Assembly (NCBI GenBank): GCA_028288925.1
Contig: JAQGHG010000012.1
Location: forward strand, 77,762-141,761
DNA: 64,000 nucleotides
Direction: 5' to 3'
Source: Patescibacteria group bacterium
GTDB lineage: Bacteria > Patescibacteriota > Saccharimonadia > UBA4664
Below the pieces are notes generated by a model. That model saw only the letters and a list, made by a program, of their open reading frames with translations, did not search any database and had not been told where the DNA came from. Position 1 is the first letter of the stretch, and each line of letters begins with the position of its first letter. Below are positions 4,690 through 56,965 of the stretch, piece by piece. The position numbers were made by a program, and so were the translations under genes.

Positions 4690-5759
4690 CTATTATTTGT
4701 GAGCTCGCCAATACGCAACGACAAGGCGGCGAGCAGCATGCTATGCTTACGCTCGCTCGAGGATTGGCTAAGCAGGCTCATGTGGATGTATTCAGCTACG
4801 CTCCGTCCCAGGGTCAAAAGCTCATAGCAAGCAAAATACCTCTTGGGCTTCGGCTGCTACCATTTATTCGTGATATGTTCTTCCTGCCTATTATCGGGAG
4901 GTTCCTTCTGCGGAAGATTGATCAAGATTACGATGTTATTCAGGCGACATCATCTACTCTCGCGGCTTTTTATCGGCCGCGTACCCGGTTTATCGTTACT
5001 TGTCATATTATCCGCTCTCAAAAAATCCCACTTTTCTACCGCCTACCCAAATACTGGCTTTTATTCAATCCACTTACTTATCGGATCATGAAGCGGCTTG
5101 AGCGGCGAGGTCTGCGTAATGCCGATAACGTGGTCGTAATTCGCGAGCATCAACGCCAATTTCTTATTGACGAACTTAAAATATCGCCCAAAAAGATCAC
5201 TCTCATACCCAACGGTGTCGATGTGGAGATCTTTAAGCCACAAGCCACACCCAAGAAGAATCAGGTAGTTTTCGTCGGCCGTACGACCTTCCCAAAAGGC
5301 TTCAATTTGCTTGTTGACGCGGCTAATTATATCGAGGGCGATATTATCGTCATCACCCAAAAAGGCGCCTCTGAACTACTGGCAAGAGCTCAGAAAACAC
5401 CCAATATGCAAATCATCAAAAGTGCGCCGCCGGAAGTTGTAGCCGGACACTACGCGGAGTCTAAGGTATTTATCTTACCTTCTCTCGACGAGGAGCAGCC
5501 CCTCACCGTTCTGGAGGCACTCGCCTGCGGGCTTCCAATAGTGGTGTCCGAGAAAGCTGCGTCGGATGTGTTTACCAGAGAGAGTACCGTTGAAGGGAAG
5601 GTTCTCGATTATCTTCGGCCAGATACCATCGCTGAAGCGGTTAATTATTACCTGAGAACCAGCATGGGGACCATAAAAAGAAACCGCCAGATTGTTGTTG
5701 ACCAATATTCCCTCGAAAATAACCTGAACCATTACCTGAGGCTTTATGAAGATAGTTAA
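4679..5759 (+). CDS. GT4 (group 1) glycosyltransferase
   Basis: VFVGRTTFPKG...EEQPLTVLEALACGLPIVVS motif; probable GTG start at 4679 (VRIAIICELANT), overlapping the upstream stop. Confidence 0.75.
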
Positions 5760-7413
5760 ATGGATAAAAAGCGAGAAATTCCTTGTCATAATCGGCGGTC
5801 TGCTCGTATTCAGTTTTTATGCCTTAATTACACTCAATCTGAACATACATGGTGATTCTAAATTCCATACTCAATTTGCCAAGGAGAGTGTTGAAAGCGG
5901 GTTTCTCGTAAAGAACCAGCCATACAGGATTTACTCAATAAGTAATGGGCAGATAAGCTTTGAGCCTATCTCATACCCCCTAGGATCGGAGGCCTTATTC
6001 GGCTCTCTCTATGCTATCGGTGGTGAGACCCTACTCCAGTTGCTATCAGCAATAATGGCGCTTGGGGTTTATTTACTCGTCTATGTTTTGCTACGGGAAT
6101 TCGGCAAAAAAGTTGCCCTTCCTACGGCAATTTTATCGGTGTTGGTAGTCGGCGAAAGACTGTTCATGACGCCGTTGCTCGAACCACTCCTTCTGATCCT
6201 ATTACTCGGCGCGGTGGTGTGTGTCAAAAACTTCCTTCGTCAAAATGATAAAAAACAGCTTTACCTGGCGGCGCTTTTTGTAGGCGCGGCGACATGCATA
6301 AAACAACAGGGTCTAGTAGCACTATTCGCCATAGCGGGCTTCCTTACTTGTTTTTTTGTTTGGAAAATTGCCCACAAGGAATGGGGGCTAAGAAAGATAA
6401 GCGCGCTATTTATCTTTATCCTTATAGCGTTTACCGTCCCTGCTCCTTCGATTGCCGAACAAATACATCGGACAGGAACATTTGCTTTTGCGCCCGGAAG
6501 GACGGAACTGCCATCATCGATGCCTTTTTATAATCTGGTGCAACCACTGCTCACAAGTAAATTCGCTGTAAAACCTGAAGCCAAGGCAGCAATAAAGGAA
6601 CAGGTTAAGTACAACCAAAAAAAGCAATCTTTCACCGACAAGGTTAGGGGGTTCCTTTTAGCGCCTATCCTTTTTTACCGGTCTACGGATAGTGGTTTTC
6701 TTTCATCCAGCTACACAATGCTCTTCTACGGAACGCTCACATTGTTGTTACTATTCGTTATCGCATTGATACGACGCGGAGATGTCTTTGGAGGATTCCT
6801 CGTATACTTAATGATTACCGAAATGCTCGTTTCCTTTACCTTGAAAACGCCCATAACTCAGTACCACACCTTTGGAGTAATTCTGGTGGTTATGGTGCTG
6901 GCCCTAGCTCTGAAAAATCTTCTAGCTTTGGCCAAAGTACCCGGCATAGCCTACCTCCTTCTTGCTTTTGGGCTGTTCACATTTAACTACGCGGACTTGC
7001 TGGTCCCTTTGTGGAGCTCATCGGGTAGAGAGGACGGCCATAGCTTAACGGCCTACCAAAGAATAGGGGCATATGTCCAAGAGAGTACGCCCAAGAGCTC
7101 AATCTTTCTCGCTCCAGAGACAAGCTTCAGATATTATGCCAAGCGCGATACGATCTGGCTTACAGAGGACAACGCGGATGTCGTGATGCGCATCATCACC
7201 AACCCCAACCCCGATAATGAGCTGAAAGATTTACGTAGTCTATCCGTAACGCACGTAGTAATAAACGCGAGCCAGTTAAACCGATACGGAGTAAACGATT
7301 ATCTGCCGCCCGACGGGCTTTATGCGGGTATCAAAAACTCACCACATTTTAAGAAGCTCTATGACCCTTATGGTGATGGGCATTTCGTAATCTACGAGGT
7401 GCGCTATGAGTAA
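5746..7413 (+). CDS. polytopic membrane protein with C-terminal soluble domain (GT-C glycosyltransferase or O-antigen-polymerase-like candidate)
   Basis: 555 aa; about 12 hydrophobic helices then a roughly 150-aa hydrophilic C-terminus; lower-GC segment within the glycosyl cluster. Confidence 0.45.
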   Translation: MKIVKWIKSEKFLVIIGGLLVFSFYALITLNLNIHGDSKFHTQFAKESVESGFLVKNQPYRIYSISNGQISFEPISYPLGSEALFGSLYAIGGETLLQLLSAIMALGVYLLVYVLLREFGKKVALPTAILSVLVVGERLFMTPLLEPLLLILLLGAVVCVKNFLRQNDKKQLYLAALFVGAATCIKQQGLVALFAIAGFLTCFFVWKIAHKEWGLRKISALFIFILIAFTVPAPSIAEQIHRTGTFAFAPGRTELPSSMPFYNLVQPLLTSKFAVKPEAKAAIKEQVKYNQKKQSFTDKVRGFLLAPILFYRSTDSGFLSSSYTMLFYGTLTLLLLFVIALIRRGDVFGGFLVYLMITEMLVSFTLKTPITQYHTFGVILVVMVLALALKNLLALAKVPGIAYLLLAFGLFTFNYADLLVPLWSSSGREDGHSLTAYQRIGAYVQESTPKSSIFLAPETSFRYYAKRDTIWLTEDNADVVMRIITNPNPDNELKDLRSLSVTHVVINASQLNRYGVNDYLPPDGLYAGIKNSPHFKKLYDPYGDGHFVIYEVRYE

Positions 7414-8836
7414 TATGGGCCGGGGCGTTATGTATCTTGGCGTCTCATCAATCTTTTTCATGCTCTCTGGCTACCTGATAAATATATTACTCGGACGGCA
7501 CCTGGGGCCAGAATTATATGGTGCCTACGGGGTATTGATGTCGCTAATGACTACGATGAATATCATGCAAGTTTCGGGGATGCCGCAAGCGGTCAGCAAG
7601 TTTACGGCGGAAGATGAAGACAACTCCGAGGCTATCTTGCGCAGCGGCATTATGATTCAGCTATGGTCAACTCTTGTGATCGGATTAACGTTCTTTGTTT
7701 CAGCGCCTCTCTTCGCGGTCATCTTTAAAGATCCTGCCTTCACGGGCTACATGAGAGCCTTGTCGCTGGTCTTCCCTTTCTATGGGCTCTTCGCTCTCTA
7801 TGGTGGTTACTACAATGGCCGGCATAACTTTAAACGGCAAGCGATTATCAATAGCACCTACTCTGTCGTAAAGCTCGGGCTTGTCGTGGGGCTGGCGCTT
7901 GCATCTGGGCTCTATGGCGCCATCGCGGGCTTTGTTATGGCGTCGCTCTTTGCTCTTATTGGCGCTTTCCACAGGCCCAAAACCGTCCGAAGGTTTCCGT
8001 ATCGTCCTCTTATCTTGTACTCACTCCCACTTATCGGATTCGCGGTACTCTCCACCCTTCAGCTCTCCGTCGACCTCTTTTCCCTGAAGGCGATGACATC
8101 AGACGCGCGCTTGGTTGGGTATTACGCGGCCGCCCAAAGCATAGCAATCATTCCTTTCATGGCTATGAGCGCGATAGGACAAGTATTGTTCCCGAGCATC
8201 GCCAGGCAATTGGGCCAAGGCCGCGTACATGATGCGCGGAGGAGCATAAGACAAGCACTTCGCTACCTCTTATTGCTGTTAGTTCCTATTGCCGTGCTAA
8301 TAGCGGCAACAGCGCCTGACCTTATAAGTTTTCTCTTTGGCGCCAAATATTTACCCGCGGTTCCTGCGCTCCGGCTTCTTGTCCTCGGCTATGTTTTTCT
8401 GACGATATTTATGACATTCGCAAACATCCTAAACGGTTCAGGAAGAGCACATGCCTCGGCATTATGGGCCGGCATTGGCGTGGGCACCGCCTTTGTGCTG
8501 TGTATCCTTCTCATCCCTAATTACGGAAGTATCGGCGCCGCGGCGACAACCTGTATCGGGGCTTTTCTCGCGGCGGCGGGGGCGATTATAGCAACTTATC
8601 GCAGCCTCAAATTCAGGCCGCCATATCTCAGTATATTTAGACTGTCGATTGCGGCGATGGTGCTTTATGCGGCGGCCTATTTTGTAAGGCTGCCCACTGC
8701 GGTATTGCCGCTTTGGTATGTAGCATTAAGCGCGGCCTATGTTTGGCTACTTAGGCTTATGGGAGAAATCACCATCCAAGATTGGCAAATGACGAAAGCT
8801 CTATTCTCAAAACAAGACAGAGGAAGCGGATTATGA
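7406..8836 (+). CDS. polysaccharide biosynthesis protein / oligosaccharide flippase (Wzx, MOP superfamily)
   Basis: 476 aa; 12-14 TM helices; typical flippase hydrophobicity pattern; sits with GT genes. Confidence 0.7.
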   Translation: MSNMGRGVMYLGVSSIFFMLSGYLINILLGRHLGPELYGAYGVLMSLMTTMNIMQVSGMPQAVSKFTAEDEDNSEAILRSGIMIQLWSTLVIGLTFFVSAPLFAVIFKDPAFTGYMRALSLVFPFYGLFALYGGYYNGRHNFKRQAIINSTYSVVKLGLVVGLALASGLYGAIAGFVMASLFALIGAFHRPKTVRRFPYRPLILYSLPLIGFAVLSTLQLSVDLFSLKAMTSDARLVGYYAAAQSIAIIPFMAMSAIGQVLFPSIARQLGQGRVHDARRSIRQALRYLLLLLVPIAVLIAATAPDLISFLFGAKYLPAVPALRLLVLGYVFLTIFMTFANILNGSGRAHASALWAGIGVGTAFVLCILLIPNYGSIGAAATTCIGAFLAAAGAIIATYRSLKFRPPYLSIFRLSIAAMVLYAAAYFVRLPTAVLPLWYVALSAAYVWLLRLMGEITIQDWQMTKALFSKQDRGSGL

Positions 8837-10257
8837 ATAAAAACAAAAAGTGGTCACGGCTAACGGCCCTTGCGGGGTCCATGGTGTTAGTCGGATATAT
8901 CTTATTCGTCAACGCGATGCCATTAGGCGTGAGCTACGATTTCAAGCCAGGAAATAAAAATGTGTCATCGCTCGGCCCTGGAACCCGGGTTGAGACGCTA
9001 AATAGAAGTCAACGCCTCATCCAGGATCTCGCGTACTTCACGTCTAATATGACATTTCTTTTTGAACATGCACGAGTTCGCATGGCAATAAAAACTAGCG
9101 ATGTAAACCAGGTGGCTTGGTTGGGGTATAAAGACCAGCAAGCTTGGCATTACAACAATCAAGTTATAAGCGCGCCATTCATAGATTCATTAGGCTGGGC
9201 CAGGGTGGGAGAAGGGCCCTACCTCTATCAGAAACAACCAAGCTATAAGTCCTACGCCGATTTTATGGCTAATACACCTAGGGACAAATTTATAGGGGTC
9301 TATAACTACAGCGATACCGCGCTACGCCAGAGCAAGGCGGACATGTCAGGTTACAAGCCCGCCACCGCTGAAACGGTCGTCTCTACTCCTATCCGTGGCA
9401 AAGTTACAATGTACGCTTACCTCGCCAATGAGCCGTTTCGCCTCGCCGTCGAAAAAAGAGACCTTAATTGGTACAAAGATCCTGACGTTGCTACGGTAAA
9501 AGTCTACAAAGATACGGACAAAGTCTTCGAGACGACAATAGGTGACGACGGCAACACAAACGACGATCATCATCCAGGAGCCTCGCAACAAGCTGACATT
9601 AAGAACCCCGGCCCCGGACTGCCTGAAGCGGGTGTTTACAAAATTGTAATAGACGCACCGGACGACTCGATCATCACCAAAATCGCCACCAACATGCATA
9701 AGATTACGTTTGAAGGTCCTCTCCACCTGGCAGGCAACCATGAGGTTTACGGCGATGTTGTACCGCCGACCGCATCGGTTGACATCTTCACGAATGCCAC
9801 CGATGTCTCGGCGCAAGCATTCTCTAGGTCGGCTCAAACGCTCATAGCAGGTGGAAAATCAGTACCATTAACTCAATCACAAACGTTCATCAATCTCGCG
9901 TCCACGCCACAGATTAGTGCCATCAAGGCCCCCAAGAGTGACATCGTCATCAATGGCGTCGGCTACTTCGCCTTCAGCCAAGATCAATTCTTTGAACCCA
10001 CCCCCTATCACATTCTCCAAATCACCGGCCCCAAAGACCTCGAAAAAGTCGACTATGTACTCACCAACTACAAACCGCCCAAACAGCTCGGCGACGGCTG
10101 GGTAGAGGTGGAGCGGGAGTTTGATCTTAGCGGCGCCGTGGTGCAGAAAGGTAAGCTTAGTTGGGTTATTAGCGCGCCGGGACTGGCCGATAACAAGCGC
10201 AGTATCGAGATTAAGGATATTCAAATGACGCTCACTAAGAAAGGCTGGTTTAAGTAA
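8833..10257 (+). CDS. membrane-anchored extracytoplasmic protein of unknown function
   Basis: ATG at 8833 overlaps the upstream stop (ATGA); N-terminal TM anchor WSRLTALAGSMVLVGYILFV; about 475 aa. Confidence 0.5.
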   Translation: MNKNKKWSRLTALAGSMVLVGYILFVNAMPLGVSYDFKPGNKNVSSLGPGTRVETLNRSQRLIQDLAYFTSNMTFLFEHARVRMAIKTSDVNQVAWLGYKDQQAWHYNNQVISAPFIDSLGWARVGEGPYLYQKQPSYKSYADFMANTPRDKFIGVYNYSDTALRQSKADMSGYKPATAETVVSTPIRGKVTMYAYLANEPFRLAVEKRDLNWYKDPDVATVKVYKDTDKVFETTIGDDGNTNDDHHPGASQQADIKNPGPGLPEAGVYKIVIDAPDDSIITKIATNMHKITFEGPLHLAGNHEVYGDVVPPTASVDIFTNATDVSAQAFSRSAQTLIAGGKSVPLTQSQTFINLASTPQISAIKAPKSDIVINGVGYFAFSQDQFFEPTPYHILQITGPKDLEKVDYVLTNYKPPKQLGDGWVEVEREFDLSGAVVQKGKLSWVISAPGLADNKRSIEIKDIQMTLTKKGWFK

Positions 10258-10661
10258 TGGCGCGGATTACCGATATAGCTGTGGCTCTCGTGGGTGGCGC
10301 CTATGTACTCTTCGCGCCTGGTCTGGTGCTGTCGTTTGTGTTCTTCCGCCGCGACGCCATCGATTGGCTGGAGCGGGTGGCCCTGAGCTTTGCGCTATCG
10401 GTTGCCGTGGTGCCGCTGGTGGTGTTTTACTTGAACATGATAGGGATAAAACTGACGCGTCTAAGTGTGGTGCTGGAGGTTGCGGCGATAATGGTGGTGA
10501 GCGGGGGAGTGGTATGGTGGCGAGTCCGCCGGGTACAGCCGCGTAAGCCGCCGGCCGCCAAGCCCGCGCCGGTGATGGGACCAGAGCCCAGCGTCCCGCC
10601 AACCAAGCCCGCGCCCCGGCGGCGGTCCATGGACGCGGTAGGACGGAGGAACCATGAGTAA
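10257..10661 (+). CDS. small polytopic membrane protein with Pro/Lys-rich C-terminus
   Basis: 134-aa ORF; ATG overlaps the upstream TAA; 3-4 hydrophobic helices. Confidence 0.4.
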   Translation: MARITDIAVALVGGAYVLFAPGLVLSFVFFRRDAIDWLERVALSFALSVAVVPLVVFYLNMIGIKLTRLSVVLEVAAIMVVSGGVVWWRVRRVQPRKPPAAKPAPVMGPEPSVPPTKPAPRRRSMDAVGRRNHE

Positions 10662-10802
10662 CCAAAAGCAAACCCCAAACAACGGCCCCGACAGCCTCGA
10701 TGAGTTGGATTCAACCTTGCGCGGCGCCAAATTCAGCCTCTGGGCGACGGCCCGGGAGGCCTTCCAGCGGCTTGTCCGCAAGCTGACGCGGGGCCGGCGG
10801 CT

Positions 10803-11150
10803 ATGACTACGTGGCGCACCAACACCAATACTTCTAGCCGCGAATTCTTCCAAGTATCACTCGTGACGTATCTCCTGCTTACACTGGCCGAGGCGCTCAA
10901 GGAAGGATTTGTTTCGAACTTCTTTAATATGAATTATCTGCTGCTCGTGGTTTTACTCGCCGGAGTTGCCATGGTGCTCACCGAACCGGCCGAGAGCGAG
11001 ATCAAACGCACCATGGAGGTGGTGCACCAAGCCGTCCGCGCGCGTTTGGTCCGGCCAGCCGTGGATTCCGTCCGGAGAGCCGGCCGCTTCCGCACCATCG
11101 ATCTCCGCGAACAGCCCTCCCGAAAAATACCTACCAGTCGGCATCGTTAA
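10803..11150 (+). CDS. hypothetical small membrane protein (weak)
   Basis: 115-aa ORF with two hydrophobic segments; its ATG overlaps the TGA of an unlisted 50-aa ORF at 10654-10806 (ATGA). Confidence 0.25.
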   Translation: MTTWRTNTNTSSREFFQVSLVTYLLLTLAEALKEGFVSNFFNMNYLLLVVLLAGVAMVLTEPAESEIKRTMEVVHQAVRARLVRPAVDSVRRAGRFRTIDLREQPSRKIPTSRHR

Positions 11151-11177
11151 GACCACCACTACCAGATAAGAATTGCT

Positions 11178-11205
11178 ATTGGTGATTATCCTAATTATCA
11201 CCAAT
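11178..11205. promoter_or_regulatory. inverted repeat ATTGGTGAT-N10-ATCACCAAT, candidate operator upstream of the small secreted peptide gene
   Basis: 9-bp perfect arms read from sequence; a plausible TTGATC-N17-TAGAGT promoter lies about 30 nt downstream. Confidence 0.35.
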
Positions 11206-11296
11206 AATCCATGCCGGAAACCGTCAGATCATCCTGTTGATCAATCGGTTTATATCTATAGAGTAGGACGAGTAGTAGTAAGGAGGGGTGCATTCT

Positions 11297-11542
11297 ATGA
11301 AGCGAAAGCTCGCGTTAACGGCGGCCGCCATTGCAATAACCGGCATGGCAGCTTCCAGCGCACTGGCCGCGCCAGGCAACGACAACGGTAATAACAACAA
11401 CAGTCGTCCTGGCTGGGGTAACGGTGACGCTCAACATGTCCACACCGGACCACCGGGGGAGTCGGTAAACCCAGGACATCATCATTTCTTCTGGTGGTGG
11501 ATCTGGAATTTCTTGCGACATTTCCATTTCCCATGGTCATAA
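11297..11542 (+). CDS. small secreted peptide precursor with Gly/Asn-rich middle and His/Trp/Phe-rich C-terminus
   Basis: SD AGGAGG 10 nt upstream; Sec-type signal peptide MKRKLALTAAAIAITGMAASSALA; mature tail HHHFFWWWIWNFLRHFHFPWS; followed by its own terminator. Confidence 0.55.
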   Translation: MKRKLALTAAAIAITGMAASSALAAPGNDNGNNNNSRPGWGNGDAQHVHTGPPGESVNPGHHHFFWWWIWNFLRHFHFPWS

Positions 11543-11545
11543 AAA

Positions 11546-11571
11546 AGAGCGGCTCCGGCCGCTCTTTTTTT
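11546..11571 (+). terminator. rho-independent terminator
   Basis: AGAGCGGC-TCCG-GCCGCTCT hairpin followed by T7. Confidence 0.6.
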
Positions 11572-11645
11572 GTAACAATGCCCAAGTCGGAGATTATGGC
11601 TTTGAGGATACGATAAGAAGGTAATTAAGAGGTGAGGTAATAACT

Positions 11646-12251
11646 ATGAATGGACGTTCAGTATCAATCGCGCGCTCCATGGCCGTCATTGGCGGCACCG
11701 GAGCATTAATCGTAGCGGCTACATTTGCGGCATTTACGACCAATGCCGTATCGATAAACGGTACTACGCTGGCCGTGGAAGACAGCAGCGACTTTCTGCG
11801 TATCTACGATTTTGCCGGGGCCAACTTTGCCACCAGTACGGCCAACCCGGCCAACGCCGGCAACATCAACCTGACTCTGCATCAAGGGGTAGAGAGCGCC
11901 AAACAGCACTTCTATCTGCAGAACACTAGTACCGACACCGATATTGGCATATCGGTCAAGGCCGCCGGCGTAACCGGCACTATAGATCACACCAAGGTTA
12001 AAGTCAGGTTCTATGACGACGCCGCCAGCCCCCACCTTCTTGGGTCGGACACATTGGCCAACCTGGAGAGCACGGGAGTGGCGCTCAACACCGGCGAAGG
12101 CAAGCTTCCGTTTAACACGCAGGGCGACAGTAGTAGCCTAGGGACCGATCACAACGGTAACTATCTCGTGAGCTTCGAGCTTACCGGCTCCGGCGAAAAT
12201 GGCCACACCTTAAGCGACGTCAACCTGCTGTTCACTGGCACCAGTCTCTGA
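11646..12251 (+). CDS. TasA / camelysin-like secreted protein with SipW-cognate-class signal peptide
   Basis: N-terminus IGGTGALIVAATFAAFTTNAVSINGTTLAV resembles the TasA/CalY GGGT(W/F)A(A/Y)F(N/S)D...GTLDL region; immediately upstream of a SipW-like peptidase. Confidence 0.55.
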   Translation: MNGRSVSIARSMAVIGGTGALIVAATFAAFTTNAVSINGTTLAVEDSSDFLRIYDFAGANFATSTANPANAGNINLTLHQGVESAKQHFYLQNTSTDTDIGISVKAAGVTGTIDHTKVKVRFYDDAASPHLLGSDTLANLESTGVALNTGEGKLPFNTQGDSSSLGTDHNGNYLVSFELTGSGENGHTLSDVNLLFTGTSL

Positions 12252-13679: not shown

Positions 13680-15098
13680 ATGCTCGCAGCTTCATTTAAA
13701 CGCACTAAAATCGTGGCCACTATCGGCCCATCATCAAACTCGCCGCAGGTGCTCGAGGAGTTGCTGCTGGCCGGGGTAAATATGTTCCGGCTCAACTTCT
13801 CGCACGGCACCCATGAGGAGCACGGCCAAGTGGCCAAATATGCCCGGCATCTCTCCGACAAACACGGCAAGCCGGTGGCCGTTCTGGCCGACATTCAGGG
13901 GCCCAAGATTCGCGTAGGCACTCTGCCTATTGACGGGCTGCCGTTTGTCCGCGGCAACGTCGTGCGCTTCCAGTTTGGCGCCGACTACGAAGCCAGCGGT
14001 GTTATCCCCGTCCAGCACGACATCTCCAAATACCTCAAGAACGGCGAGCGCGTCTTCCTTCGCGACGGCCAGGTACAGATCGAGGTAGAGAAGATTCAAA
14101 AACAGCTCATCACCGGCAAAGTGCTCACGCCGGGCATCGTCTTCTCGAACCAAGGCATGAACCTGCCCGACACCGACCTAGGCGGCGATATCCTCACGCC
14201 CAAGGACATCGCCGATATTGAATTCGCCGCCAGCCAGGGTGTGGATTACATTGGGTATTCCTTCGTACAAACCGCCGATGACATTCATAAGCTGCGCGAG
14301 CGGCTCGTCAAGCTCAAATGTGACGCCAAAATCATCGCCAAGATCGAGACCGCCGCGGCCGTCGAAAACCTCGAAGAGATCGTGGCCGCCACCGACGTCA
14401 TCATGGTAGCGCGCGGCGATCTGGCCATCGAGACCAAGCCCGAAGCCGTCCCCGCCGCCCAGCGCCGCATGATCGAGCTCGGCAAACAATACCGCAAGCC
14501 CGTCATCGTCGCTACCCAAATGCTCGAAAGCATGATCCAGTCGCAGCAGCCCACCCGCGCCGAGGTGTCCGATGTGGCCACCGCCGTCCTCGAAGGCACC
14601 GACGCCGTCATGCTCTCCGGCGAGACCGCCATGGGCCTCTTCCCGGTCGAGGCCGTCAAGATGATGAAACGCGTCATTCTCTACACCGAGCGCGAAGAAA
14701 TCGCCGGCCGCAACAACCTGCCCGAATGGCGCGACTTCGGCCACGAACGCCAAAACGCCATCTCCGCCGCCGCCGTGGTGCTAGCCAACCAACTGCCGGC
14801 CAAGGTCATCATCGCCGAGACCAGCTCCGGCCAGACCGCCCGCAATATCTCCGCGCTGCGCCCCAACATGCCCATCATCATGGTGACCGACCACAAGCGC
14901 GTCTACTACCAAATGGCCATCGTCTGGGGCGGCAAATCCTACTTTGCCAAAGACATGAAGGGCGCCACCGACCACGTCATCCGCCAGCTCAAAGCCGCCG
15001 AAAATATCACCAAAGGCGACGCCGCCGTGGTCGCCTCGGGCAACCAGCCCGGCTTGGTCGGCGGCACCGATAAAGTCGTCATCAAGATCACCGAGTAA
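13680..15098 (+). CDS. pyk: pyruvate kinase
   Basis: KIVATIGP, NFSHG, MVARGDL motifs; about 470 aa. Confidence 0.9.
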   Translation: MLAASFKRTKIVATIGPSSNSPQVLEELLLAGVNMFRLNFSHGTHEEHGQVAKYARHLSDKHGKPVAVLADIQGPKIRVGTLPIDGLPFVRGNVVRFQFGADYEASGVIPVQHDISKYLKNGERVFLRDGQVQIEVEKIQKQLITGKVLTPGIVFSNQGMNLPDTDLGGDILTPKDIADIEFAASQGVDYIGYSFVQTADDIHKLRERLVKLKCDAKIIAKIETAAAVENLEEIVAATDVIMVARGDLAIETKPEAVPAAQRRMIELGKQYRKPVIVATQMLESMIQSQQPTRAEVSDVATAVLEGTDAVMLSGETAMGLFPVEAVKMMKRVILYTEREEIAGRNNLPEWRDFGHERQNAISAAAVVLANQLPAKVIIAETSSGQTARNISALRPNMPIIMVTDHKRVYYQMAIVWGGKSYFAKDMKGATDHVIRQLKAAENITKGDAAVVASGNQPGLVGGTDKVVIKITE

Positions 15099-15106
15099 CG
15101 CGCGCG

Positions 15107-15370
15107 ATGGGGCATCTCGCCGACTCCGAACTCCAAAGCCGCCTAGCTCAGGCGGCCAGTCAGGTCTCGATAGGCGCCGAATATGTGCACTACAAAGGCA
15201 ATATCTACCTAGTGACCGGCTTGGCCATCCTCGAAGCCACCGATGAAGTTGGCATCATTTACGATGCTCGATATGGCGAAGGTCTCACATTTGTGCGGGC
15301 GCTCGAGTCGTGGCTCGAAACGGTTGAATATAAGGGGGAAAATGTGCCCCGCTTTGCGCGCCGTCGCTAA
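15107..15370 (+). CDS. small DUF1653-like protein
   Basis: YVHYKGNIYLVTGLA...IIYDARYG pattern recalled for DUF1653; 87 aa. Confidence 0.4.
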   Translation: MGHLADSELQSRLAQAASQVSIGAEYVHYKGNIYLVTGLAILEATDEVGIIYDARYGEGLTFVRALESWLETVEYKGENVPRFARRR

Positions 15371-15436
15371 GATGGCTAGCTATACATGAGCGCGTCCAAA
15401 TCCGCTACACTACCAATGACAGTAACCGGGGTCCTT

Positions 15437-16633
15437 ATGAAGAAGAAAACCATCCGCGATATCGACATCAAAGGTAAGACCATCCTGGCTCGCCTCGACT
15501 GGAACGTACCCATCAAGGACGGCCAGGTCACCGACGCCTACCGCATCGAGTCCACCCGGCCCACCATCGACTACTTGCTTGAGCAAGGCTGCAAAGTCAT
15601 CATCACGAGCCACCTCGGCCGCCCCGACGGTAAGCCTGATCCCAAGTTTAGTCTCGCGCCGGCCGCCAAAAAAGCCGCCGAAGTCCTCGGCCGCGAGGTT
15701 AAATTCATAGCCGATTGCGTAGGTACCGAAGTCCAGGCCGCCGTCGCCGCGCTCGAGCCCGGCCAGTTGCTCTGCCTCGAAAACGTCAGATTCCACCCCG
15801 AAGAAGAGGCCAACGACCCGGCTTTCGCCAAGCAGCTGGCGGACCTCGCCGAAGTCTTCGTCTACGACGCCTTCGCTTCATATCGCCCGCACGCTTCCAC
15901 CGAAGGCGTCGCGCACTACCTGCCCGCCGTGGCCGGTCTGCTGGTCGAAAAAGAAGTCGATTACATCACCGGCGCCGTCGAGCACCCCAACCGCCCACTC
16001 GTAGCCGTCATCGGCGGGGCCAAAGTCTCGACCAAGCTCGAGATCCTCACCAACCTCGTATCCAAGGTCGACGCCATGCTCCTTACCGGGCCCATCGCCA
16101 GCACCTTTGCTTACACCGAAGGCCGCGCCATCGGCAAAAGTGTCGCCGAGCGCGATCAGACCGAGGCCGTCAAAAAACTCCTCGAAATCGCCAAAACCGA
16201 AAACACCCAAGTCCTCCTACCCGAAGAGGTCGTCGTATCTAAGAGCTTGGAGAAGCCTCAAGACATTCACACCGTCAGCCTCGGCAGCGTCAAAGACGAC
16301 GAATACATCGTCGATGCCACCCCCGCCTACGGCGAGGTCCTCAAGCGCACCATCTACGACTTCCTCGACTTCGACGGCAAGGCCACCATCATCTGGAACG
16401 GCCCCCTCGGCCTCACCGAAGTGCCCGAATTCCGCGCCGGCTCCCGCGCCATGGCCCAGGCCATCATCGACAGCAAAGGCATCTCCATTATCGGCGGCGG
16501 CGACACCGCCAGCTTCCTCGACCAAGAAGGCCTACACGACAAATTTACTTGGGTGTCCACCGGCGGCGGCGCCAGTCTAGAGCTCATGAGCGGCAAGGGC
16601 TTGCCCTGCGTCGACGCATTGCTCGACAAATAG
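15437..16633 (+). CDS. pgk: phosphoglycerate kinase
   Basis: ARLDWNVP, IITSHLGRP, GGGDT and GGGASLE motifs; the ORF track begins earlier at 15386. Confidence 0.92.
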   Translation: MKKKTIRDIDIKGKTILARLDWNVPIKDGQVTDAYRIESTRPTIDYLLEQGCKVIITSHLGRPDGKPDPKFSLAPAAKKAAEVLGREVKFIADCVGTEVQAAVAALEPGQLLCLENVRFHPEEEANDPAFAKQLADLAEVFVYDAFASYRPHASTEGVAHYLPAVAGLLVEKEVDYITGAVEHPNRPLVAVIGGAKVSTKLEILTNLVSKVDAMLLTGPIASTFAYTEGRAIGKSVAERDQTEAVKKLLEIAKTENTQVLLPEEVVVSKSLEKPQDIHTVSLGSVKDDEYIVDATPAYGEVLKRTIYDFLDFDGKATIIWNGPLGLTEVPEFRAGSRAMAQAIIDSKGISIIGGGDTASFLDQEGLHDKFTWVSTGGGASLELMSGKGLPCVDALLDK

Positions 16634-16691
16634 CTCACGGGTCCTGTCACCCGTAAGCCTAGTTGCTCAGAGTGCAATAAAGGTAGGCGGA

Positions 16692-16786
16692 GGGAATATG
16701 CGCTTTGTGCCAGCCAGCGCCGGTCCAGATATTGGCTCCACCGAAGAGAAGGACAGCGTTCGCTGGCCAACAAAGCGCATATTCCC
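16692..16786. repeat. palindromic repeat element, copy A (intergenic pgk-tpiA): 17-bp outer inverted repeat GGGAATATGCGCTTTGT / ACAAAGCGCATATTCCC around a conserved core
   Basis: read directly; the core TGTGCCAGCCAG...GGCTCCACCGAAGAGA...GCGTTCGCTGGCCA is about 86% identical to copy B at 22607-22697. Confidence 0.7.
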
Positions 16787-16883
16787 GCAGCAAAAAAATA
16801 AAAGCTTCTCCCAAGCAAAAACCTGATAGAAACGTGACACAATGCTCGCAAAGCATTACCATTATTAATGAAATGAGGGTAAT

Positions 16884-17648
16884 ATGCGGCTAATCGTCGG
16901 AAACTGGAAGATGAACTTAAACCCGGGCGAGGCCAGCTTGCTCGTGAAGCGCCTAGAGGACAAAATAAAGCCCGATCCTAAAACTGAGATCGTCATTTGC
17001 CCGCCGTTCATCGATCTGTATCCTATCGCCAAAGACCTCGACCGCGGTAAGCTCAAGCTGGGCTCGCAAAACATCCACTACCTCGACGAAGGACCCTTCA
17101 CCGGTGAAATCTCCCCGGCCATGCTCAAGGGCCTGGCCGATTACGCCATCATCGGCCACTCCGAGCGCCGGGCCATGGGCGAAGACGACAAGCTGATCGC
17201 CAAAAAAATGGCGGCCGCCATCCGCAATGACATCACGCCCGTCCTCTGCGTCGGCGAGACCCTGGCCGAGCGCCAGCACGGTCTGGCCAAAAAGGTGATA
17301 GTCGACCAGCTCACCGCCGACCTCACCCAGCTCACCGCCACCGACGTTGCCAAAATCGTCGTAGCCTACGAGCCCGTCTGGTCCATCAACCACGGCGACG
17401 GCAACATCGTGCACGCCAAGCCCGAAGACATCACCTTTGCCTACACCACCATCCGCACTCTCCTGGAGGAACTCTACGGCGAAGAGGGCGTGAGCGGCTT
17501 ACGGCTGCTCTATGGCGGCAGCGCCGATCCCGGCCATTGCCGAGCCTACTTAGAAATGCCTTATGTCGACGGGCTACTCGTCGGCGGCGCCAGCCTAAAT
17601 TACGAAGATTTCGCCAAGATAGTCAAAGTTGCTCAAGGTTTAAAGTAG
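16884..17648 (+). CDS. tpiA: triosephosphate isomerase
   Basis: GNWKMN, IIGHSERR, CVGETL, AYEPVWSI motifs. Confidence 0.92.
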   Translation: MRLIVGNWKMNLNPGEASLLVKRLEDKIKPDPKTEIVICPPFIDLYPIAKDLDRGKLKLGSQNIHYLDEGPFTGEISPAMLKGLADYAIIGHSERRAMGEDDKLIAKKMAAAIRNDITPVLCVGETLAERQHGLAKKVIVDQLTADLTQLTATDVAKIVVAYEPVWSINHGDGNIVHAKPEDITFAYTTIRTLLEELYGEEGVSGLRLLYGGSADPGHCRAYLEMPYVDGLLVGGASLNYEDFAKIVKVAQGLK

Positions 17649-20165: not shown

Positions 20166-23100
20166 GTGCATCCACTTCTAGCCGAACTCAATGAGCCCCA
20201 GCGCAAAGCCGCCGAAACCACCGATGGCCCCGTCTTAATATTGGCCGGCGCCGGCTCGGGCAAGACCAAGGCCCTCACGCACCGCATTGCCTACCTGGCC
20301 GCCGAGAAGCATGTCCGGCCGCAAAGCATCCTGGCCGTCACCTTCACCAACAAAGCCGCCGGCGAGATGCGCGCGCGCGTCCTCAAGCTGCTCAGCCTCG
20401 ACCCCAACAATCGTGGCTATTTTCCGTTTATCGGCACCTTTCACTCGATCTGTCTGCGGCTGTTGCGGCGCGAAGCCACCGAGATCGGCCTGGCCTCCAA
20501 CTTCCTCATCTTCGACGCCGCCGACACCCAATCCGCCATCAAGCGCGCCATGCGCCAAACCAACATCGACGACAAACAATTCACCCCCAACCTCATCCAC
20601 GGCCTCATCTCCAGCGCCAAAAACGAGCTGGTCGATGCCGCGGCCTACGCCAAATTCGCCACCGGCAAGGCCCAAGAAGCCGCCGCCAAAGTCTATCCCG
20701 TCTACCAAGCCACCCTCCAAGAAGCCGGCGCGCTCGACTTCGACGACCTCATCTTCCGCACCGTCAAAATGTTCAAAGACTATCCCGAAATTCTCAAAAA
20801 ATACCAAAATCAATTCCAATACATTATGGTCGACGAATACCAAGACACCAACCATGCCCAATATCAAATCACTAAGCTTCTGGCCCAAGGCCACCACAAC
20901 ATTTGCGTAGTAGGGGACGACTGGCAATGCCTGGTTCCAGGGACCTTGATCGAAACCCCCGCTGGCCCCAGGAAAATTGAGGCCATTACCAGGGGAGACC
21001 TCGTCACCTCGGCGAGCGGTTACGGCCGGTCCGGACAGTTTAAAGTCTTAGCTCAAAAAAAATTCCAATACCAAGGCGAGATAATCCACATTGAGACCGC
21101 TTCGGGCAAGGAGCTGGCATGCACGCCCAATCATCTGCTCTTCTCCCGGTGGAGCCAAACGGACGCCTATTTTGTCTATCTGATGTATTCGCAAGACAAG
21201 GGCTATCGCATTGGTGTCGCTAAAGGCACAAGATTTGATGGCAAAAAGCACGACACCGGCCTAAGGATACGTGCCAACCAGGAACGCGCCGACCGAATGT
21301 GGGTGATCAAAGTTTGCGTCAACCGGGCAGAAGCCATGTACAACGAAGCTCTCTTCGCGTACAAGTATGGAATTCCCATGTTAGTCTTCCGTGCCTTTAG
21401 CAACCGGGCCATGAAATTTGATCAAAAGTACATTGACGCCATCTATGAGGAGATCGACACCGAAACCAGAGCCAAACAGCTAATGACAAGGCTTGGGTTA
21501 GCCTTCGACTATCCGCACTTTGTACCCAGCGCCACCACCAGAAATGACATAAAGCGAGTAGTTGTAAACGTGGTTCTTTTTGGTGATAAGCGCATTACGC
21601 GACAAAGCCCGTGGTCAGCCAGTAGAATTTCCGCCAACACTACCGTCCGCCACGATATTGAAGTGTTTGAGAAGCTTGGACACACGGTAAGAATCGGTCG
21701 GTCGGGCACGTTCCGGGCCGAGATTCACAACCTCGACTATGGTCAAATCGAGCAGACACTTGAGCAGCTAAAGGAAGGTGCGGCCAACCAGCTACAAATC
21801 CACAAATACGCGTTTCTAACCGATAACAAATTCTCGTACATGCCAGCCAGCCAAATACATCTCGGCATGATGGTCCCCACAATCCAGGACGGTGTTATAA
21901 CGGAAGACCGGATAGTCGCGGTCAGTCGGAGCCATTACTCAGGGCCGGTATACGACCTAGATATTGATAAAGTTCATAATTACATCGCCTCAGAGCTGGT
22001 TGTGCATAACTCCATATATTCTTGGCGCGGCGCCAATTTCCAAAACATTCTCGACTTCGAAAAAGACTATCCCGACACCGAAGTCATCAAGCTTGAGCAA
22101 AATTATCGCTCCACCAAGCGCATTCTCGATGCTGCCCACGCTATTATCACCAAAAACCGCACCCGCAGCGACAAAAAACTCTGGACCGACCGCGGCGACG
22201 GCGCCGGCATCAGCATCGTCAACGTCTACAACGAAATCCAGGAAGCCGAGACCATCGTGCGCAAAATCCAAGAGCTCAAACTCGCCGAAACGCGCGAGCT
22301 CTACGACTTCGCCATCCTCTACCGCACCAACGCCCAATCCCGCTCGCTCGAAGAAGCCTTCCTGCGTGCCAACCTGCCCTACAAAATCGTCGGCGGCACG
22401 CGCTTCTATGAGCGCAAAGAAATCAAAGACGCCCTGGCCTACCTGCGCTTCGTCTACCAGCCCGACGACATGGTGAGCTTCGGCCGCATCATCAACCTCC
22501 CGCCACGCGGCCTCGGCGACGTCAGCCTCCAACGCCTCGAGTCCTGGCGCCGCACCCAGACCATCAGGGCAAATAACGGGGAGGAGCGCAGCGGGGTAGA
22601 GGCGCAGGGTGGCTCATCTGTGCCAGCCAGTGTAGGTTCAGATACCGGCTCCACCGAAGAGACGGATGGCGTTCGCTGGCCAGCAGATGAGCCACCCGAA
22701 GCCCAAGCGAATAAGCTGCGCCCCATGTCCCTCCTCGAGGCCTGCCGCCAAGCCGACCGCGCCCCCGGCCTCCAGGCCCGCGCCGTCAACGCCCTCCAAA
22801 CCTTTGCCCTGCTCATCGACGGCCTGCGCCAAGAGGCCAAAACCCTCGCCGTCGGCCCACTGCTGAGCCTCATCATCAAGCGCTCCGGCTACCTCGCCCA
22901 CCTCGACGATGGCTCCATCCAGGCCGCCGACCGCATCGAAAACGTCAAAGAGCTCCTCTCTGTCGCCGAGGCCTACAACGAACTCCCGCTCCAAGGCTTC
23001 CTGGAAGAAATCGCCCTCATCTCCGACATCGACAACTATTCCGAGTCCACCGACGCCGTCACCCTCATGACCCTCCACGCCGCCAAAGGCCTCGAGTTTC

Positions 23101-23621
23101 CCGTGGTCTTCATCCCCGGCGCCGAAGAGGGCATCTTCCCGCATTCCCGCGCACTCTTCGACGGCGAGCAGATGGAAGAAGAGCGCCGCCTTTGCTACGT
23201 CGGCATGACCCGGGCCAAAGAACGCCTCTATATGCTCTATGCCAACTCGCGCCTGCTCTACGGCTCCACCAACCACAACCCACCCTCACGCTTCCTCCTG
23301 GAAATCCCTGCCGAGCTTCAGGCCGATGACAACGAATGGAGCGCCGCTTCCCGTACCGCCGCGGCCGGCCACGGCGCCGGCGCCGCCAGCTGGTCGCCCA
23401 CAGCCATGCGCGCCACCGGCCCCACCACTGAAGCCTCCGCCGCCGCCCACCGCGAAGCCATGCTCGGCCTCAGTCTGGCCCCCGGCGACCGCATCCACCA
23501 CGCCAAATTCGGCGACGGCATCGTCAGCTCCATCTCCGGCGACGAAGTCACCGCCGCCTTCGAAGGCATCGGCTCCAAACGCCTCAGCCTCAGTTTCGCC
23601 CCGATCGAAAAGGTGGAATAA
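20166..23621 (+). CDS. uvrD: ATP-dependent DNA helicase UvrD/PcrA carrying an intein in helicase motif III
   Basis: Walker A AGAGSGKT; DEYQDTN; VVGDDWQ / SIYSWRGAN split by the intein; C-terminal VGMTRAKE and Tudor-like tail; 1151 aa against roughly 740 aa expected. Confidence 0.9.
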   Translation: MHPLLAELNEPQRKAAETTDGPVLILAGAGSGKTKALTHRIAYLAAEKHVRPQSILAVTFTNKAAGEMRARVLKLLSLDPNNRGYFPFIGTFHSICLRLLRREATEIGLASNFLIFDAADTQSAIKRAMRQTNIDDKQFTPNLIHGLISSAKNELVDAAAYAKFATGKAQEAAAKVYPVYQATLQEAGALDFDDLIFRTVKMFKDYPEILKKYQNQFQYIMVDEYQDTNHAQYQITKLLAQGHHNICVVGDDWQCLVPGTLIETPAGPRKIEAITRGDLVTSASGYGRSGQFKVLAQKKFQYQGEIIHIETASGKELACTPNHLLFSRWSQTDAYFVYLMYSQDKGYRIGVAKGTRFDGKKHDTGLRIRANQERADRMWVIKVCVNRAEAMYNEALFAYKYGIPMLVFRAFSNRAMKFDQKYIDAIYEEIDTETRAKQLMTRLGLAFDYPHFVPSATTRNDIKRVVVNVVLFGDKRITRQSPWSASRISANTTVRHDIEVFEKLGHTVRIGRSGTFRAEIHNLDYGQIEQTLEQLKEGAANQLQIHKYAFLTDNKFSYMPASQIHLGMMVPTIQDGVITEDRIVAVSRSHYSGPVYDLDIDKVHNYIASELVVHNSIYSWRGANFQNILDFEKDYPDTEVIKLEQNYRSTKRILDAAHAIITKNRTRSDKKLWTDRGDGAGISIVNVYNEIQEAETIVRKIQELKLAETRELYDFAILYRTNAQSRSLEEAFLRANLPYKIVGGTRFYERKEIKDALAYLRFVYQPDDMVSFGRIINLPPRGLGDVSLQRLESWRRTQTIRANNGEERSGVEAQGGSSVPASVGSDTGSTEETDGVRWPADEPPEAQANKLRPMSLLEACRQADRAPGLQARAVNALQTFALLIDGLRQEAKTLAVGPLLSLIIKRSGYLAHLDDGSIQAADRIENVKELLSVAEAYNELPLQGFLEEIALISDIDNYSESTDAVTLMTLHAAKGLEFPVVFIPGAEEGIFPHSRALFDGEQMEEERRLCYVGMTRAKERLYMLYANSRLLYGSTNHNPPSRFLLEIPAELQADDNEWSAASRTAAAGHGAGAASWSPTAMRATGPTTEASAAAHREAMLGLSLAPGDRIHHAKFGDGIVSSISGDEVTAAFEGIGSKRLSLSFAPIEKVE
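20928..22010 (+). other. intein (361 aa) inside uvrD
   Basis: starts CLVPGTLIETPAG (block A); TPNH (block B); ends VYDLDIDKVHNYIA...VVHN followed by +1 Ser (blocks F/G); the flanks rejoin to GDDWQSIYSWRGA. Confidence 0.8.
22607..22697. repeat. palindromic repeat element, copy B, in-frame inside uvrD: 14-bp outer inverted repeat GGGTGGCTCATCTG / CAGATGAGCCACCC
   Basis: shares the conserved core with copy A; encodes roughly GGSSVPASVGSDTGSTEETDGVRWPADEPP within a non-conserved UvrD loop. Confidence 0.65.
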
Positions 23622-34981: not shown

Positions 34982-34990
34982 ATATTTTAT

Positions 34991-50332: not shown

Positions 50333-50722
50333 TTGGGCAAATACCTGGGAATTGATTATGGCGCGAAGCGGATTGGCCTGGCTACCGCCGACGCCGAAAC
50401 CAAGCTGGCTACGCCCCTCGCCACGGTGGGGGCGGCCGAGCTGATCGCAACCATTAAGCGCGAGGGACCGTTCAAGGCAGTCGTGGTTGGCCTTCCGCGC
50501 AGCCTCGACGGCCTCGAGACCGCCCAGACCTTGGCCGTGCGCCGTTTCACCGATGACGTGCTGTGGCGGCACTTGCGCATCGAGGCCGAGTTCCAAGACG
50601 AGGCCGGCACCTCGTCGCTCGCCGAAGAGCGCCTCAAGGGTGCCGGCAAGCCCTACGCCAAAGGCGCCATCGACGCGGAAGCCGCCGCTATCATTTTGCA
50701 AGATTACCTGGACGCGCTATGA
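50333..50722 (+). CDS. ruvX: Holliday-junction-resolvase-like RNase YqgF/RuvX
   Basis: YLGIDYGAKRIGLA N-terminus; VVGLPRSLDG; TTG start. Confidence 0.85.
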   Translation: MGKYLGIDYGAKRIGLATADAETKLATPLATVGAAELIATIKREGPFKAVVVGLPRSLDGLETAQTLAVRRFTDDVLWRHLRIEAEFQDEAGTSSLAEERLKGAGKPYAKGAIDAEAAAIILQDYLDAL

Positions 50723-51735: not shown

Positions 51736-51985
51736 CGTAACGGGTCCTGGCAGCTTCGGAATATCTCTCCTCGGGCGAGCGAGCGCTGCCCGTCTCTTCG
51801 GTGGACACGATATCAGTATCCGCACTCGCTTCCTCGGAGAGACATTCCTGCGCCGCCACCCGTAAAAAGCGCCACATGGAGCTCAAATTTGACAACGTGT
51901 GGAACATATCATACCGGTGTGTCGTGATGTTTATTTGATGCCGTGAAGGGCCGCATTTTCCCCTTGGCAAGGCTCTTTAACATGG

Positions 51986-56674: not shown

Positions 56675-56705
56675 CCGAGCCGGGGTTTCTCCACGCACCA
56701 TCCGA

Positions 56706-56924: not shown

Positions 56925-56965
56925 TCATTAAGAGCCGTGAGGCTCTTTTTGATATACTCATGCAT

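Follow-up and report, generated by a model that had tools for sequence, protein, structure and literature searches.

The 64,000-nt stretch of contig JAQGHG010000012.1 that has been analyzed here (the window), from a Patescibacteria group bacterium of the Saccharimonadia, contains three copies (A, B and C) of a palindromic element that is mobile over evolutionary time, tolerated in frame within the helicase gene pcrA and constrained as a nucleic acid. On balance, and with reservations that are set out below, we take it for a non-autonomous palindromic repeat family of Saccharimonadia, closest in kind to the repetitive extragenic palindromic sequences (REPs) that start with a GT(A/G)G head and to the Rickettsia palindromic elements (RPEs) that are found in frame within genes. 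A sequence-only reading of the same DNA had described copy A as a perfect 17-bp inverted repeat around a core that recurs in a second copy at about 86% identity, with outer stems that are unrelated in the two copies and yet self-complementary, and with an inner GCCAGC/GCTGGC pairing. These features hold. The arms of copy A, GGGAATATGCGCTTTGT (16692-16708) and ACAAAGCGCATATTCCC (16770-16786), make the perfect 17-bp inverted repeat with a 61-nt core between them (a repeat finder stretches it to 22 nt at 91% complementarity), a 67-nt core (16706-16772) matches positions 22619-22685 in copy B at 85% identity, and the arms of copy B, GGGTGGCTCATCTG (22607-22620) and CAGATGAGCCACCC (22684-22697), are perfectly complementary over 14 bp and unrelated to those of copy A. 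What the earlier description missed was copy C, the in-frame position of copy B and the conserved flanks outside the stems.

The stem of copy C has a third sequence, unrelated to those of A and B, and the identity of the outer stems among the three copies (0.23–0.36) is at the random level. Covariance models found A, B and C as the only copies in the window, with scores for the two models of 110.7 and 90.2 bits (A), 121.7 and 116.6 bits (B) and 103.5 and 107.7 bits (C). In addition, a 16-mer, GGCTCCACCGAAGAGA, had four matches in the window at up to three mismatches, against 0.56 expected. Folded as RNA, the copies reached z-scores of -7.8 (A, -59.3 kcal/mol), -5.6 (B) and -4.7 (C), and in each case none of 200 shuffled sequences folded as well; folded as DNA, the z-scores were -6.9 for A and -3.8 for B. 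Nor are there two copies only, an outcome that had been named beforehand as fatal to the idea of a family, since we have found nine further ones in metagenome contigs of related Saccharimonadia.

The alignment of these 12 copies, which make up a first subfamily, was carried out on the sense strand, defined as the strand with CCACCGAAGAGACGG. From 5′ to 3′ it consists of a head, GGGT(A/G)G, one to three unpaired bases, a basal helix, a copy-specific stem, a junction, an asymmetric loop, an inner helix (P2) and an apical region. The GT(A/G)G head, located 1–3 nt 5′ of the basal GC helix, is present in 10 of the 12 copies, as GTAG in A, B and L110–L114 (numbers with L are our handles for loci on other contigs) and as GTGG in C, L109 and L220; it is degenerate in L115 and absent in L027. 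The basal helix, 5′-GC G N A GG paired with CC G N′ A GC-3′, keeps the G.A and A.G mismatches at both sides of a pair, N:N′, that varies among the copies (G:C, C:G or A:T). The outer stem, of 12–17 bp, differs in sequence in every copy and keeps its pairing. The junction is usually GA(G/A) opposite (C/T)GA, i.e., a tandem G.A/A.G, followed by a loop with 3 nt on one side and 1 nt on the other (a kink-turn was considered here and rejected, since in a standard one the bulge and the G.A pairs follow each other in a different order). P2 has 7 bp, and the inner GCCAGC/GCTGGC pairing is present. The conserved core amounts to ~65 nt and its apical part to ~50 nt (..GGTYCWGATAYCGG..CCACCGAAGAGACGG...GCGTTCGC..), with a 3-bp hairpin (GGT YCWGAT AYC) and an invariant stretch, GAAGAGACGG...GCGTTCGC; no covariation-supported fold was found in the apical core beyond P2 and P3. 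Measured from GCGSAG to CGNAGC, the length is exactly 101 nt in copies B and C and in L110, L111, L114 and L220, and also, by alignment, in L112 and L113; in A it is 105 nt. A scan for both ends plus a stem of at least 9 bp returned every known copy and about three chance matches in 268 kb (2.8 in shuffled sets).

Evidence that the element is kept as a structure comes from the pairing. Pairs were counted in a model-based alignment of 11 copies and, although an alignment fitted by a model favors structure, standard pairs filled 92.2% of the pair cells against 74.1% in shuffles, none of 500 shuffles reached the observed pairing or covariation score, and 33–50% of the cells were paired when the partners were slid by 1–3 columns. 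Both sides had changed in 19 of 30 pairs (61 cells), among them 14 of the 16 pairs of the outer helix and four of the seven of P2, and an independent alignment and folding with MAFFT and RNAalifold gave the same outer helix, with 16 covarying pairs. The sequence-only reading had taken compensatory change as a sign of selection. The covariation goes in that direction, but compensatory change alone is no proof of selection on the stem, since template switching at replication is able to make a perfect stem, or to mend one, in a single event (PMC8794818).

The rates, which can be compared among the copies in pcrA, are more telling. At the four-fold sites of pcrA (copy B and six orthologues) identity was 0.62, with 67% C and a saturation of 0.49, and in the seven pcrA copies it was 0.45 for the outer stem, 0.71 for the core and 0.69 for the basal motif. 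On a scale from random to identical the outer stem thus stands at about one quarter, the same fraction as the four-fold sites, and judged from these values it drifts at about the synonymous rate. The complementarity has not been lost at these orthologous loci, a loss that had been named beforehand as the other refuting outcome: the seven copies have different stems, nearly all paired. Within the core of the pcrA copies, identity at codon positions 1, 2 and 3 was 0.79, 0.76 and 0.79, and this equal conservation indicates a constraint on nucleotides and not on the peptide. The head and basal motifs have identities of 0.80–0.86 between non-orthologous copies. Template switching is a plausible reason why stems of 13–17 bp stay perfect while drifting neutrally. 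However, it cannot explain the conserved mismatches or the asymmetric junction, because it would erase both, and it is irrelevant for the conserved core and the fixed length. The better evidence for constraint is the conservation of the G.A mismatches together with that of the core at synonymous positions.

The fold also has a preferred strand. Among the non-standard helix cells 16 were G.A or A.G and none was C.T, G-T pairs numbered 24 (11 of them from one invariant pair) against seven A.C, and the sense strand folded better than the antisense in 8 of 11 copies (for copy C, -53.8 against -41.0 kcal/mol). Therefore, the fold belongs to one strand, either as RNA or as single-stranded DNA. The sense strand is co-directional with the host or adjacent gene in six of seven independent contexts (A, pcrA, L109, L220 and the two second-subfamily copies L114b and L114c described below), the exception being copy C, which runs opposite to both of its neighbors. 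A replication-strand explanation for the orientation of copy C was rejected, as the GC skew has no change of sign across the window. Two other ideas about the arms were also discarded: a guide or antisense role, as none of the variable arms could be matched to a second place, either in the window or in the Saccharimonadia loci, and an apparent “arm swap” between L111 and L112, which is explained by partly self-complementary arms (GGG...CCC).

Copy B is located within an open reading frame (ORF) of 1151 aa (20166-23621) that codes for PcrA/UvrD, where it is read through as ...GVEAQGGSSVPASVGSDTGSTEETDGVRWPADEPPEAQ... The insertion point falls between residues 431 and 439 of the PcrA of G. stearothermophilus (1PJR), at a short linker that is skipped in the alignment. 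Neither in the window nor in the six orthologues does the element interrupt the frame, and the lengths of the insertions are multiples of three; translation of the element, as a hydrophilic insertion in this short linker, is tolerated. The site is cleanly empty in L219 (WRRTQ-ARP-LSLLEACR), and L217 and L218 have a remnant of the 5′ flank alone, (G/C)TAG..GC(A/G)GAGG, joined to host sequence. In a neighbor-joining tree of PcrA (approximate) the L218 remnant (P0011) nests with the full copy of L115 (P0004) and with a decayed one, and full, empty and decayed states are interleaved. The insertion peptides of other homologues are truncated (P0019 and P0021) or have an eroded core (P0006, P0014, P0043 and P0081), so the constraint on the element is not universal. 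Regarding copy A, the pgk-tpiA spacer is 20–47 nt long and empty in the syntenic loci L111, L113 and L114, which makes this copy lineage-specific. These comparisons show gains and losses of the element at several loci. For pcrA, the interleaving of full, remnant and decayed states points to an old insertion with repeated loss and decay, and a possible alternative history is that of repeated reinsertion at a hot spot. Copy A is flanked by AATAAA(G/A)G and copy C by TTACG, and no direct repeat is consistent across A, C, L109 and L220.

Six of the nine copies from other contigs (L110–L115) are at this same pcrA site. As for the other three, L109 is intergenic, between convergent genes, L220 lies between a TraC-like and a VirB4/TraG-like gene, and L027, from a metagenome-assembled genome of Saccharimonadales, has, in the tail of a 608-aa surface protein, a partial copy that is in frame. 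Exact-pattern scans of metagenome contigs found L109 and L110 (a further match, L108, was due to chance), and those of genome contigs gave 107 matches, nearly all of them by chance in an enterobacterial gene, with L027 as the only relevant one; in viral contigs there were 100 chance matches and none reached into the core. A protein search with the C-terminal half of PcrA retrieved many close homologues with an insertion at exactly this position, flanked by WRRxQ and MSLLEACR (GAGSDTGPTEETDSVRRRE is an example of the peptides), together with others that have no insertion there. In the DNA of five such pcrA genes plus L110 the element was at the site in all six cases, each with its own stem, although these orthologues came from the top of a search whose query held the insertion and the conservation may be overstated. 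Copy number was three in the 64-kb window and one to three in the ~20-kb loci of relatives.

A second subfamily is represented by L114b and L114c, which have the same ends, a different core and stems of 20–25 bp. Both are on a ~650-nt insertion of L114, absent from relatives, between pyrH and a DUF348/G5 gene, where they are arranged divergently around an ORF of 70 aa and accompanied by a strong terminator-like hairpin. This insertion may be a composite mobile unit. The 70-aa ORF was considered as a possible transposase and rejected, since it codes for a small membrane protein.

There are several kinds of small repeats to which the element can be compared. In REPs a GT(A/G)G head precedes a palindrome whose stem mutations are complementary (Nunvar et al., 2010, PMC2817692). 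In the GTAG superfamily the head degenerates to GTGG, and one family has unpaired G-A in the stems (Di Nocera, 2013, PMC3733652). The same work describes G-T pairs suggesting a function as RNA, sites between co-directional and convergent genes, and copies inside genes that concentrate in replication and repair genes, including UvrD/Rep helicase (PMC3733652). Our element has in common with them the unpaired head and its GTGG variant, the complementary stem changes, the G-T pairs and the G.A motifs, the location mostly between co-directional or convergent genes and occasionally in the gene of a UvrD/Rep-type helicase, and hosts that encode RayT-like transposases. However, the REP unit has a stem of 5–13 bp common to the copies of a genome and a loop of 2–20 nt, and it is present in tens to hundreds of copies per genome, whereas here the “loop” is a conserved structured core of ~65 nt and the copy number appears low. 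REPs have been reported from eight phyla, and Patescibacteria are not among them. RPEs, as quoted from Ogata et al. in PMC10969869, are palindromes of ~100–150 bp that insert in frame and are read through, and by the account given in PMC3733652 some short RPEs belong to the CGTC class of REPs. The resemblance here lies in the size (~100–150 bp), the presence in frame in working genes of a bacterium with a reduced genome, the extra peptide, the intergenic copies and the existence of subfamilies. In contrast to RPEs, which are in frame in dozens of genes, our element has so far in-frame copies in two, its constraint is on nucleotides, its stems are idiosyncratic and it has a GT(A/G)G head. The two are probably unrelated in sequence, homology not being expected between elements of Patescibacteria and of Rickettsia.

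REPINs (hairpins made of two inverted REPs) are also similar in that a ~100-nt hairpin is the proposed mobile unit, a folded single strand moved by a vertically inherited RayT (Bertels and Rainey, 2011, PMC3116915). However, REPINs have conserved arms and a less conserved loop, while our element has variable arms, a conserved loop and a single head; no CTAC or inverted head was found at its 3′ end, i.e., it is neither a REP dimer nor a REPIN. Miniature transposable elements with inverted repeats (MITEs) such as ERIC, Correia/NEMIS and RUP are likewise small non-autonomous repeats that form a hairpin when transcribed, with copies in operons and some in ORFs. Unlike them, our element lacks conserved terminal inverted repeats of 15–30 bp (its conserved ends are 7 nt, with internal mismatches), a recognizable target-site duplication and a parent insertion sequence, and it keeps its structure long after insertion. 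The attC sites of integrons have a similar length and are comparable in that the element would be a folded single-strand substrate read by its structure and a few unpaired bases. They differ in having R″/R′ boxes (RYYYAAC/GTTRRRY) and a variable top, while here the ends are GCGSAGG/CCGNAGC and the top is conserved; neither an integrase nor a cassette array was found among the window ORFs scanned. Searches in Rfam gave no match to the element at the gathering threshold in the window, nor at E ≤ 10 for copy A, L109, L110 and L116, and full-text literature searches found no description of such repeats in Saccharibacteria or Patescibacteria. The helices are supported by covariation like those of structured RNAs, although mechanisms at the DNA level could give the same pattern. 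The sequence-only reading had hesitated between a structured RNA and a MITE- or REP-like palindrome, and called the family novel. The REP-like side gains from the GT(A/G)G head and the residence in a helicase gene and the RNA is still a candidate; what is new is the form and the host phylum, the kind being already known.

The window also encodes a RayT-like transposase of the Y1/HUH type, with the motifs YHVYNRG, HFHLLV and RYIHLDPERAG (from the Pfam annotation of the window ORFs). It scores 23.9 bits with PF01797 (cut-off 23) and 22.9 bits with the NCBIfam model REP_Tyr_transpos (cut-off 80). The gene is bracketed by 37-nt inverted repeats, each with a small palindrome, TCAAGGTCGGACCTTGA. There are ~4600 homologues, common in the clade, several of them named RayT by JGI, and some genomes have two copies. 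In L221 a homologue is found in the same relative position, between the genes for TatD and a class V aminotransferase, and such synteny suggests a vertically inherited, possibly domesticated transposase. The flanks of the three RayT-like genes examined (the one in the window, that syntenic one in L221 and one in L223) carried a different repeat family (..GCTCAAGGTCGGACCT..; AGGTCCGAYCT..GAGCG; ..GCTCAAG(G/A)TCGGACCT..) or terminal inverted repeats of 37–39 nt, and a second RayT-like gene of L221 has a REPIN-like pair of the AGGTCCGAYCT repeat at its 3′ end. By its position, the AGGTCCGAYCT..GAGCG repeat appears to be the true cognate repeat of the Saccharimonadia RayT-like transposases. The arrangement that defines REPs and their RAYTs, a repeat on the flanks of its RayT gene in inverted orientation, was looked for at these three genes and is not that of our element. 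By analogy, a Y1 enzyme would nevertheless be the most reasonable candidate to move it.

If the element is a non-autonomous palindromic repeat, as we favor, its sense strand would fold as single-stranded DNA or RNA, and a structure-specific protein would read the head, the basal G.A motif and the core, ignoring the sequence of the stem. The same protein may move the element rarely, the prime candidates being the HUH/Y1 (RayT-like) transposases encoded by these genomes, and the stems would stay perfect partly via template switching at replication. The conservation of the core at a vertically inherited locus suggests that the fold may also matter to the host, most simply as a hairpin in mRNA, as proposed for REPs. 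A number of observations weigh against this reading. We found neither a target-site duplication nor an exact insertion boundary, in a comparison that had no empty site from a close relative. Most of the 20-kb syntenic loci hold the pcrA copy alone, and the choice of the pcrA orthologues mentioned above may make the conservation look higher than it is. The element, of 101–114 nt, is three to five times longer than REPs (20–40 nt), and its stems are not common to the copies, while the stem is the repeated part of a REP. No enzyme has been linked to it: it is absent from the flanks of all three RayT-like genes, and an 8-mer, CGTTCGCT, considered as a link between the core and the RayT-like gene, occurs seven times in the window and is probably a coincidence. 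Finally, a purely selfish repeat would not be expected to have its core conserved over the long term where the locus is inherited vertically, and a role in mRNA cannot hold for every copy, given that copy C opposes both neighbors.

Alternatively, the element may be a dedicated cis-acting structured RNA with a function for the host and not primarily mobile DNA, for example a hairpin that binds a protein or is processed by RNase and tunes the stability or translation of the mRNA. The copies would then be paralogous RNA motifs under host selection, and the one in pcrA would regulate or mark the pcrA mRNA, with its translation being incidental. This has a real, if minor, chance of being right. It would account for the constraint on the core nucleotides, third codon positions included, at a vertically inherited locus, for the strand-specific G.A motifs and G-U pairs and the better folding of the sense strand as RNA, for the prevalence of co-directional contexts, for the fixed length of 101 nt and for helices that covary like those of bona fide RNAs. 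However, there is no match in Rfam even at E ≤ 10, copy C is antisense to both neighbors (scans for promoters and terminators around copies A and C could assign none), perfect stems of 13–17 bp are unusual in functional bacterial RNAs, and the apical core lacks a fold supported by covariation beyond P2 and P3. The contexts have no functional theme in common (a glycolysis operon, a helicase coding sequence, cell-wall genes, a type IV secretion system operon and a surface protein), and the many pcrA lineages that have lost, truncated or decayed the element without replacement fit better with a dispensable one. It is rather doubtful that the conserved core, with its strand-specific G.A motifs, is a new class of functional module of RNA or single-stranded DNA, mobile, protein-binding or catalytic, kept by purifying selection even inside an essential helicase gene and with the stem as a sequence-free spacer; if true, it would be a new family of mobile structured nucleic acids specific to the Candidate Phyla Radiation and not a selfish repeat of the REP type. 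Membership in the REP/RAYT system proper, as the cognate REP or REPIN-like unit of a RayT that moves it as folded single-stranded DNA, we regard as unlikely. The head at 1–3 nt from the foot of the hairpin, as in REPs (PMC2817692), the residence in a gene of the UvrD/Rep type, as for GTAG REPs, and the presence in the window of a RayT-like Y1 transposase with so many homologues argue for it, but the flanking repeats of the three genes examined are unrelated to our element, which in addition has no second inverted head, is too long and has unshared stems, and the RayT-like protein is far from the NCBIfam cut-off.

Two further explanations remain. One is that of an old neutral insertion, a mutational by-product whose stems are kept perfect by template switching alone. 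The outer stems that are perfect in spite of a neutral rate, the known capacity of template switching to make and repair such stems in one event (PMC8794818), the frequent decay and deletion, and, in B, C and L109, additional complementarity that is specific to the copy and lies beyond the element, as if the palindromes grew outward, are all in agreement with it. It becomes very unlikely in view of the G.A/A.G mismatches and the asymmetric junction, which nearly all copies keep and template switching would erase, of a core far more conserved than the four-fold sites, and equally so at all codon positions, and of head and basal motifs that are conserved between non-orthologous copies, with a fixed length. 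The other is a protein-coding module, in which the peptide (..GSDTGPTEETDSVRR..) would be selected as a small ORF or a domain insertion. The same frame is indeed open in A, B, C, L027 and all the pcrA copies, copy A has a GGAGG-N5-ATG and is called as a 42-aa gene in a public assembly, and a 52-aa ORF has been called over the L220 copy. This is nonetheless scarcely credible, as in the core the third codon position is no less conserved than the first and the second, the differences between A and B are mostly non-synonymous (six of eight changed codons), the frame is broken in L109 by a stop, with an insertion of 26 nt in addition, copy C has its ATG in another frame, and several antisense frames are open too, as expected at this G+C content. 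A peptide-profile search returned two small ORF calls only, although such a search is insensitive for a low-complexity query of 45 aa. The 42- and 52-aa “hypothetical proteins” are the element in one frame and probably spurious genes.

The coordinates of the copies and of other features are listed in Table 1. The position of copy A between pgk and tpiA, already given by the sequence-only reading, was borne out by its neighbors: the ORF at 15386-16633 is syntenic with the PGK genes of relatives and the one at 16884-17648 is identical to a gene with the Pfam domain TIM. Apart from the element, the window has a region with low G+C and low third-position C that codes for glycosyltransferases, a PMT_2-like protein and a polysaccharide flippase. 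It is possibly an island for surface polysaccharides that was acquired horizontally. Next to a tRNA, a 40-nt sequence that starts at its 3′ end is repeated perfectly beyond a NUDIX hydrolase ORF, an arrangement reminiscent of the duplicated attachment site of a very small cassette that has integrated; the G+C falls from this region to ~62 kb. An 80-nt direct repeat within a surface-protein ORF is an internal domain duplication.

Table 1. Location of the element copies, of their parts and of other features mentioned in the text (positions in the window unless a contig locus is given)
Feature	Location	Strand	Remarks
Copy A, whole element	16681..16796	+	pgk-tpiA spacer; from hairpin sequence, covariance-model matches and folds
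Copy A, GTAG head	16683-16686
Copy A, basal left, GCGGAGG	16687-16693
Copy A, core	16709-16769
Copy A, basal right, CCGCAGC	16785-16791
Copy A, A-rich tail
42-aa ORF call over copy A	16698-16826		“hypothetical protein”
Same type of ORF call, L116	L116 106-234		“hypothetical protein”
52-aa ORF call, L220	L220 1237-1395		“hypothetical protein”
Whole pcrA insertion	22560..22718	+	159 nt (53 codons): copy B plus 34 nt upstream and 11 nt downstream; from comparison with empty site and orthologues
Copy B, whole element	22594..22707	+	In frame within pcrA
Copy B, GTAG head	22596-22599
Copy B, basal left, GCGCAGG	22602-22608
Copy B, core	22621-22683
Copy B, basal right, CCGAAGC	22696-22702
Intein in pcrA	20928-22010		361 aa, CLVPGT...VVHN, then S; after GDDWQ; homologues of 735–800 aa are without it
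Copy C, whole element	51748..51861	-	Spacer from mltG/YceG-like gene (50563-51735) to LysM-CHAP gene (52178-53389); neighbors by Pfam
Copy C, GTGG head
Copy C, hairpin	51753-51853
Copy C, arms	51836-51848 and 51758-51770		13 bp including one G-T pair
Second-subfamily copy in L114	L114 14827-14941	-	Divergent from the next, around the 70-aa membrane-protein ORF
Second-subfamily copy in L114	L114 15381-15491	+
Terminator-like hairpin in L114	L114 14972-15012		Strong; within 14827-15491
Match to Rfam RF02968 (DUF3800-IX RNA)	L110 162-231	+	58.4 bits, gathering threshold 36.8; on the same contig as a pcrA copy
RayT-like gene of the window	34455-34970		Directly upstream of ORF 34967-36145
37-nt inverted repeats around it	34395-34431, 34945-34981
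RayT-like gene, L221	L221 3235-3783		Same relative position as in the window
Second RayT-like gene, L221	L221 10001-10546
RayT-like gene, L223	L223 10001-10555
REPIN-like hairpins of the AGGTCCGAYCT..GAGCG repeat	L221 9083-9193, 10533-10616; L223 9873-9957, 10520-10629		Arms of 17–35 nt; next to RayT-like genes
Low-G+C region	~3600-12000		G+C 0.49–0.53 against ~0.60
AT-rich palindrome	56705-56746		Perfect, 42 nt (21 + 21 nt, no spacer), ~70 nt upstream of the tRNA
tRNA	56819-56892		tRNA/NUDIX region, 56819-57502
40-nt perfect repeats	56885-56924, 57463-57502		Bracket the NUDIX ORF
NUDIX hydrolase ORF	57000-57434
Surface-protein ORF	60200-63109		969 aa, Ig-like/CarboxypepD_reg
80-nt direct repeat	61632-61711, 62394-62473		71% identity, 762 nt apart

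There is ample literature on small palindromic repeats of Proteobacteria and Rickettsia, and here they are seen in Patescibacteria. At a practical level, the 53-codon insertion inflates PcrA alignments, and gene callers annotate the element as hypothetical proteins. More generally, a single inherited pcrA site across many lineages provides a natural experiment in which the stem turns over neutrally and yet remains paired, with the top and the base fixed. It bears on the share of template switching and of selection in compensatory evolution, and on whether REP-like elements are selfish, useful or both.

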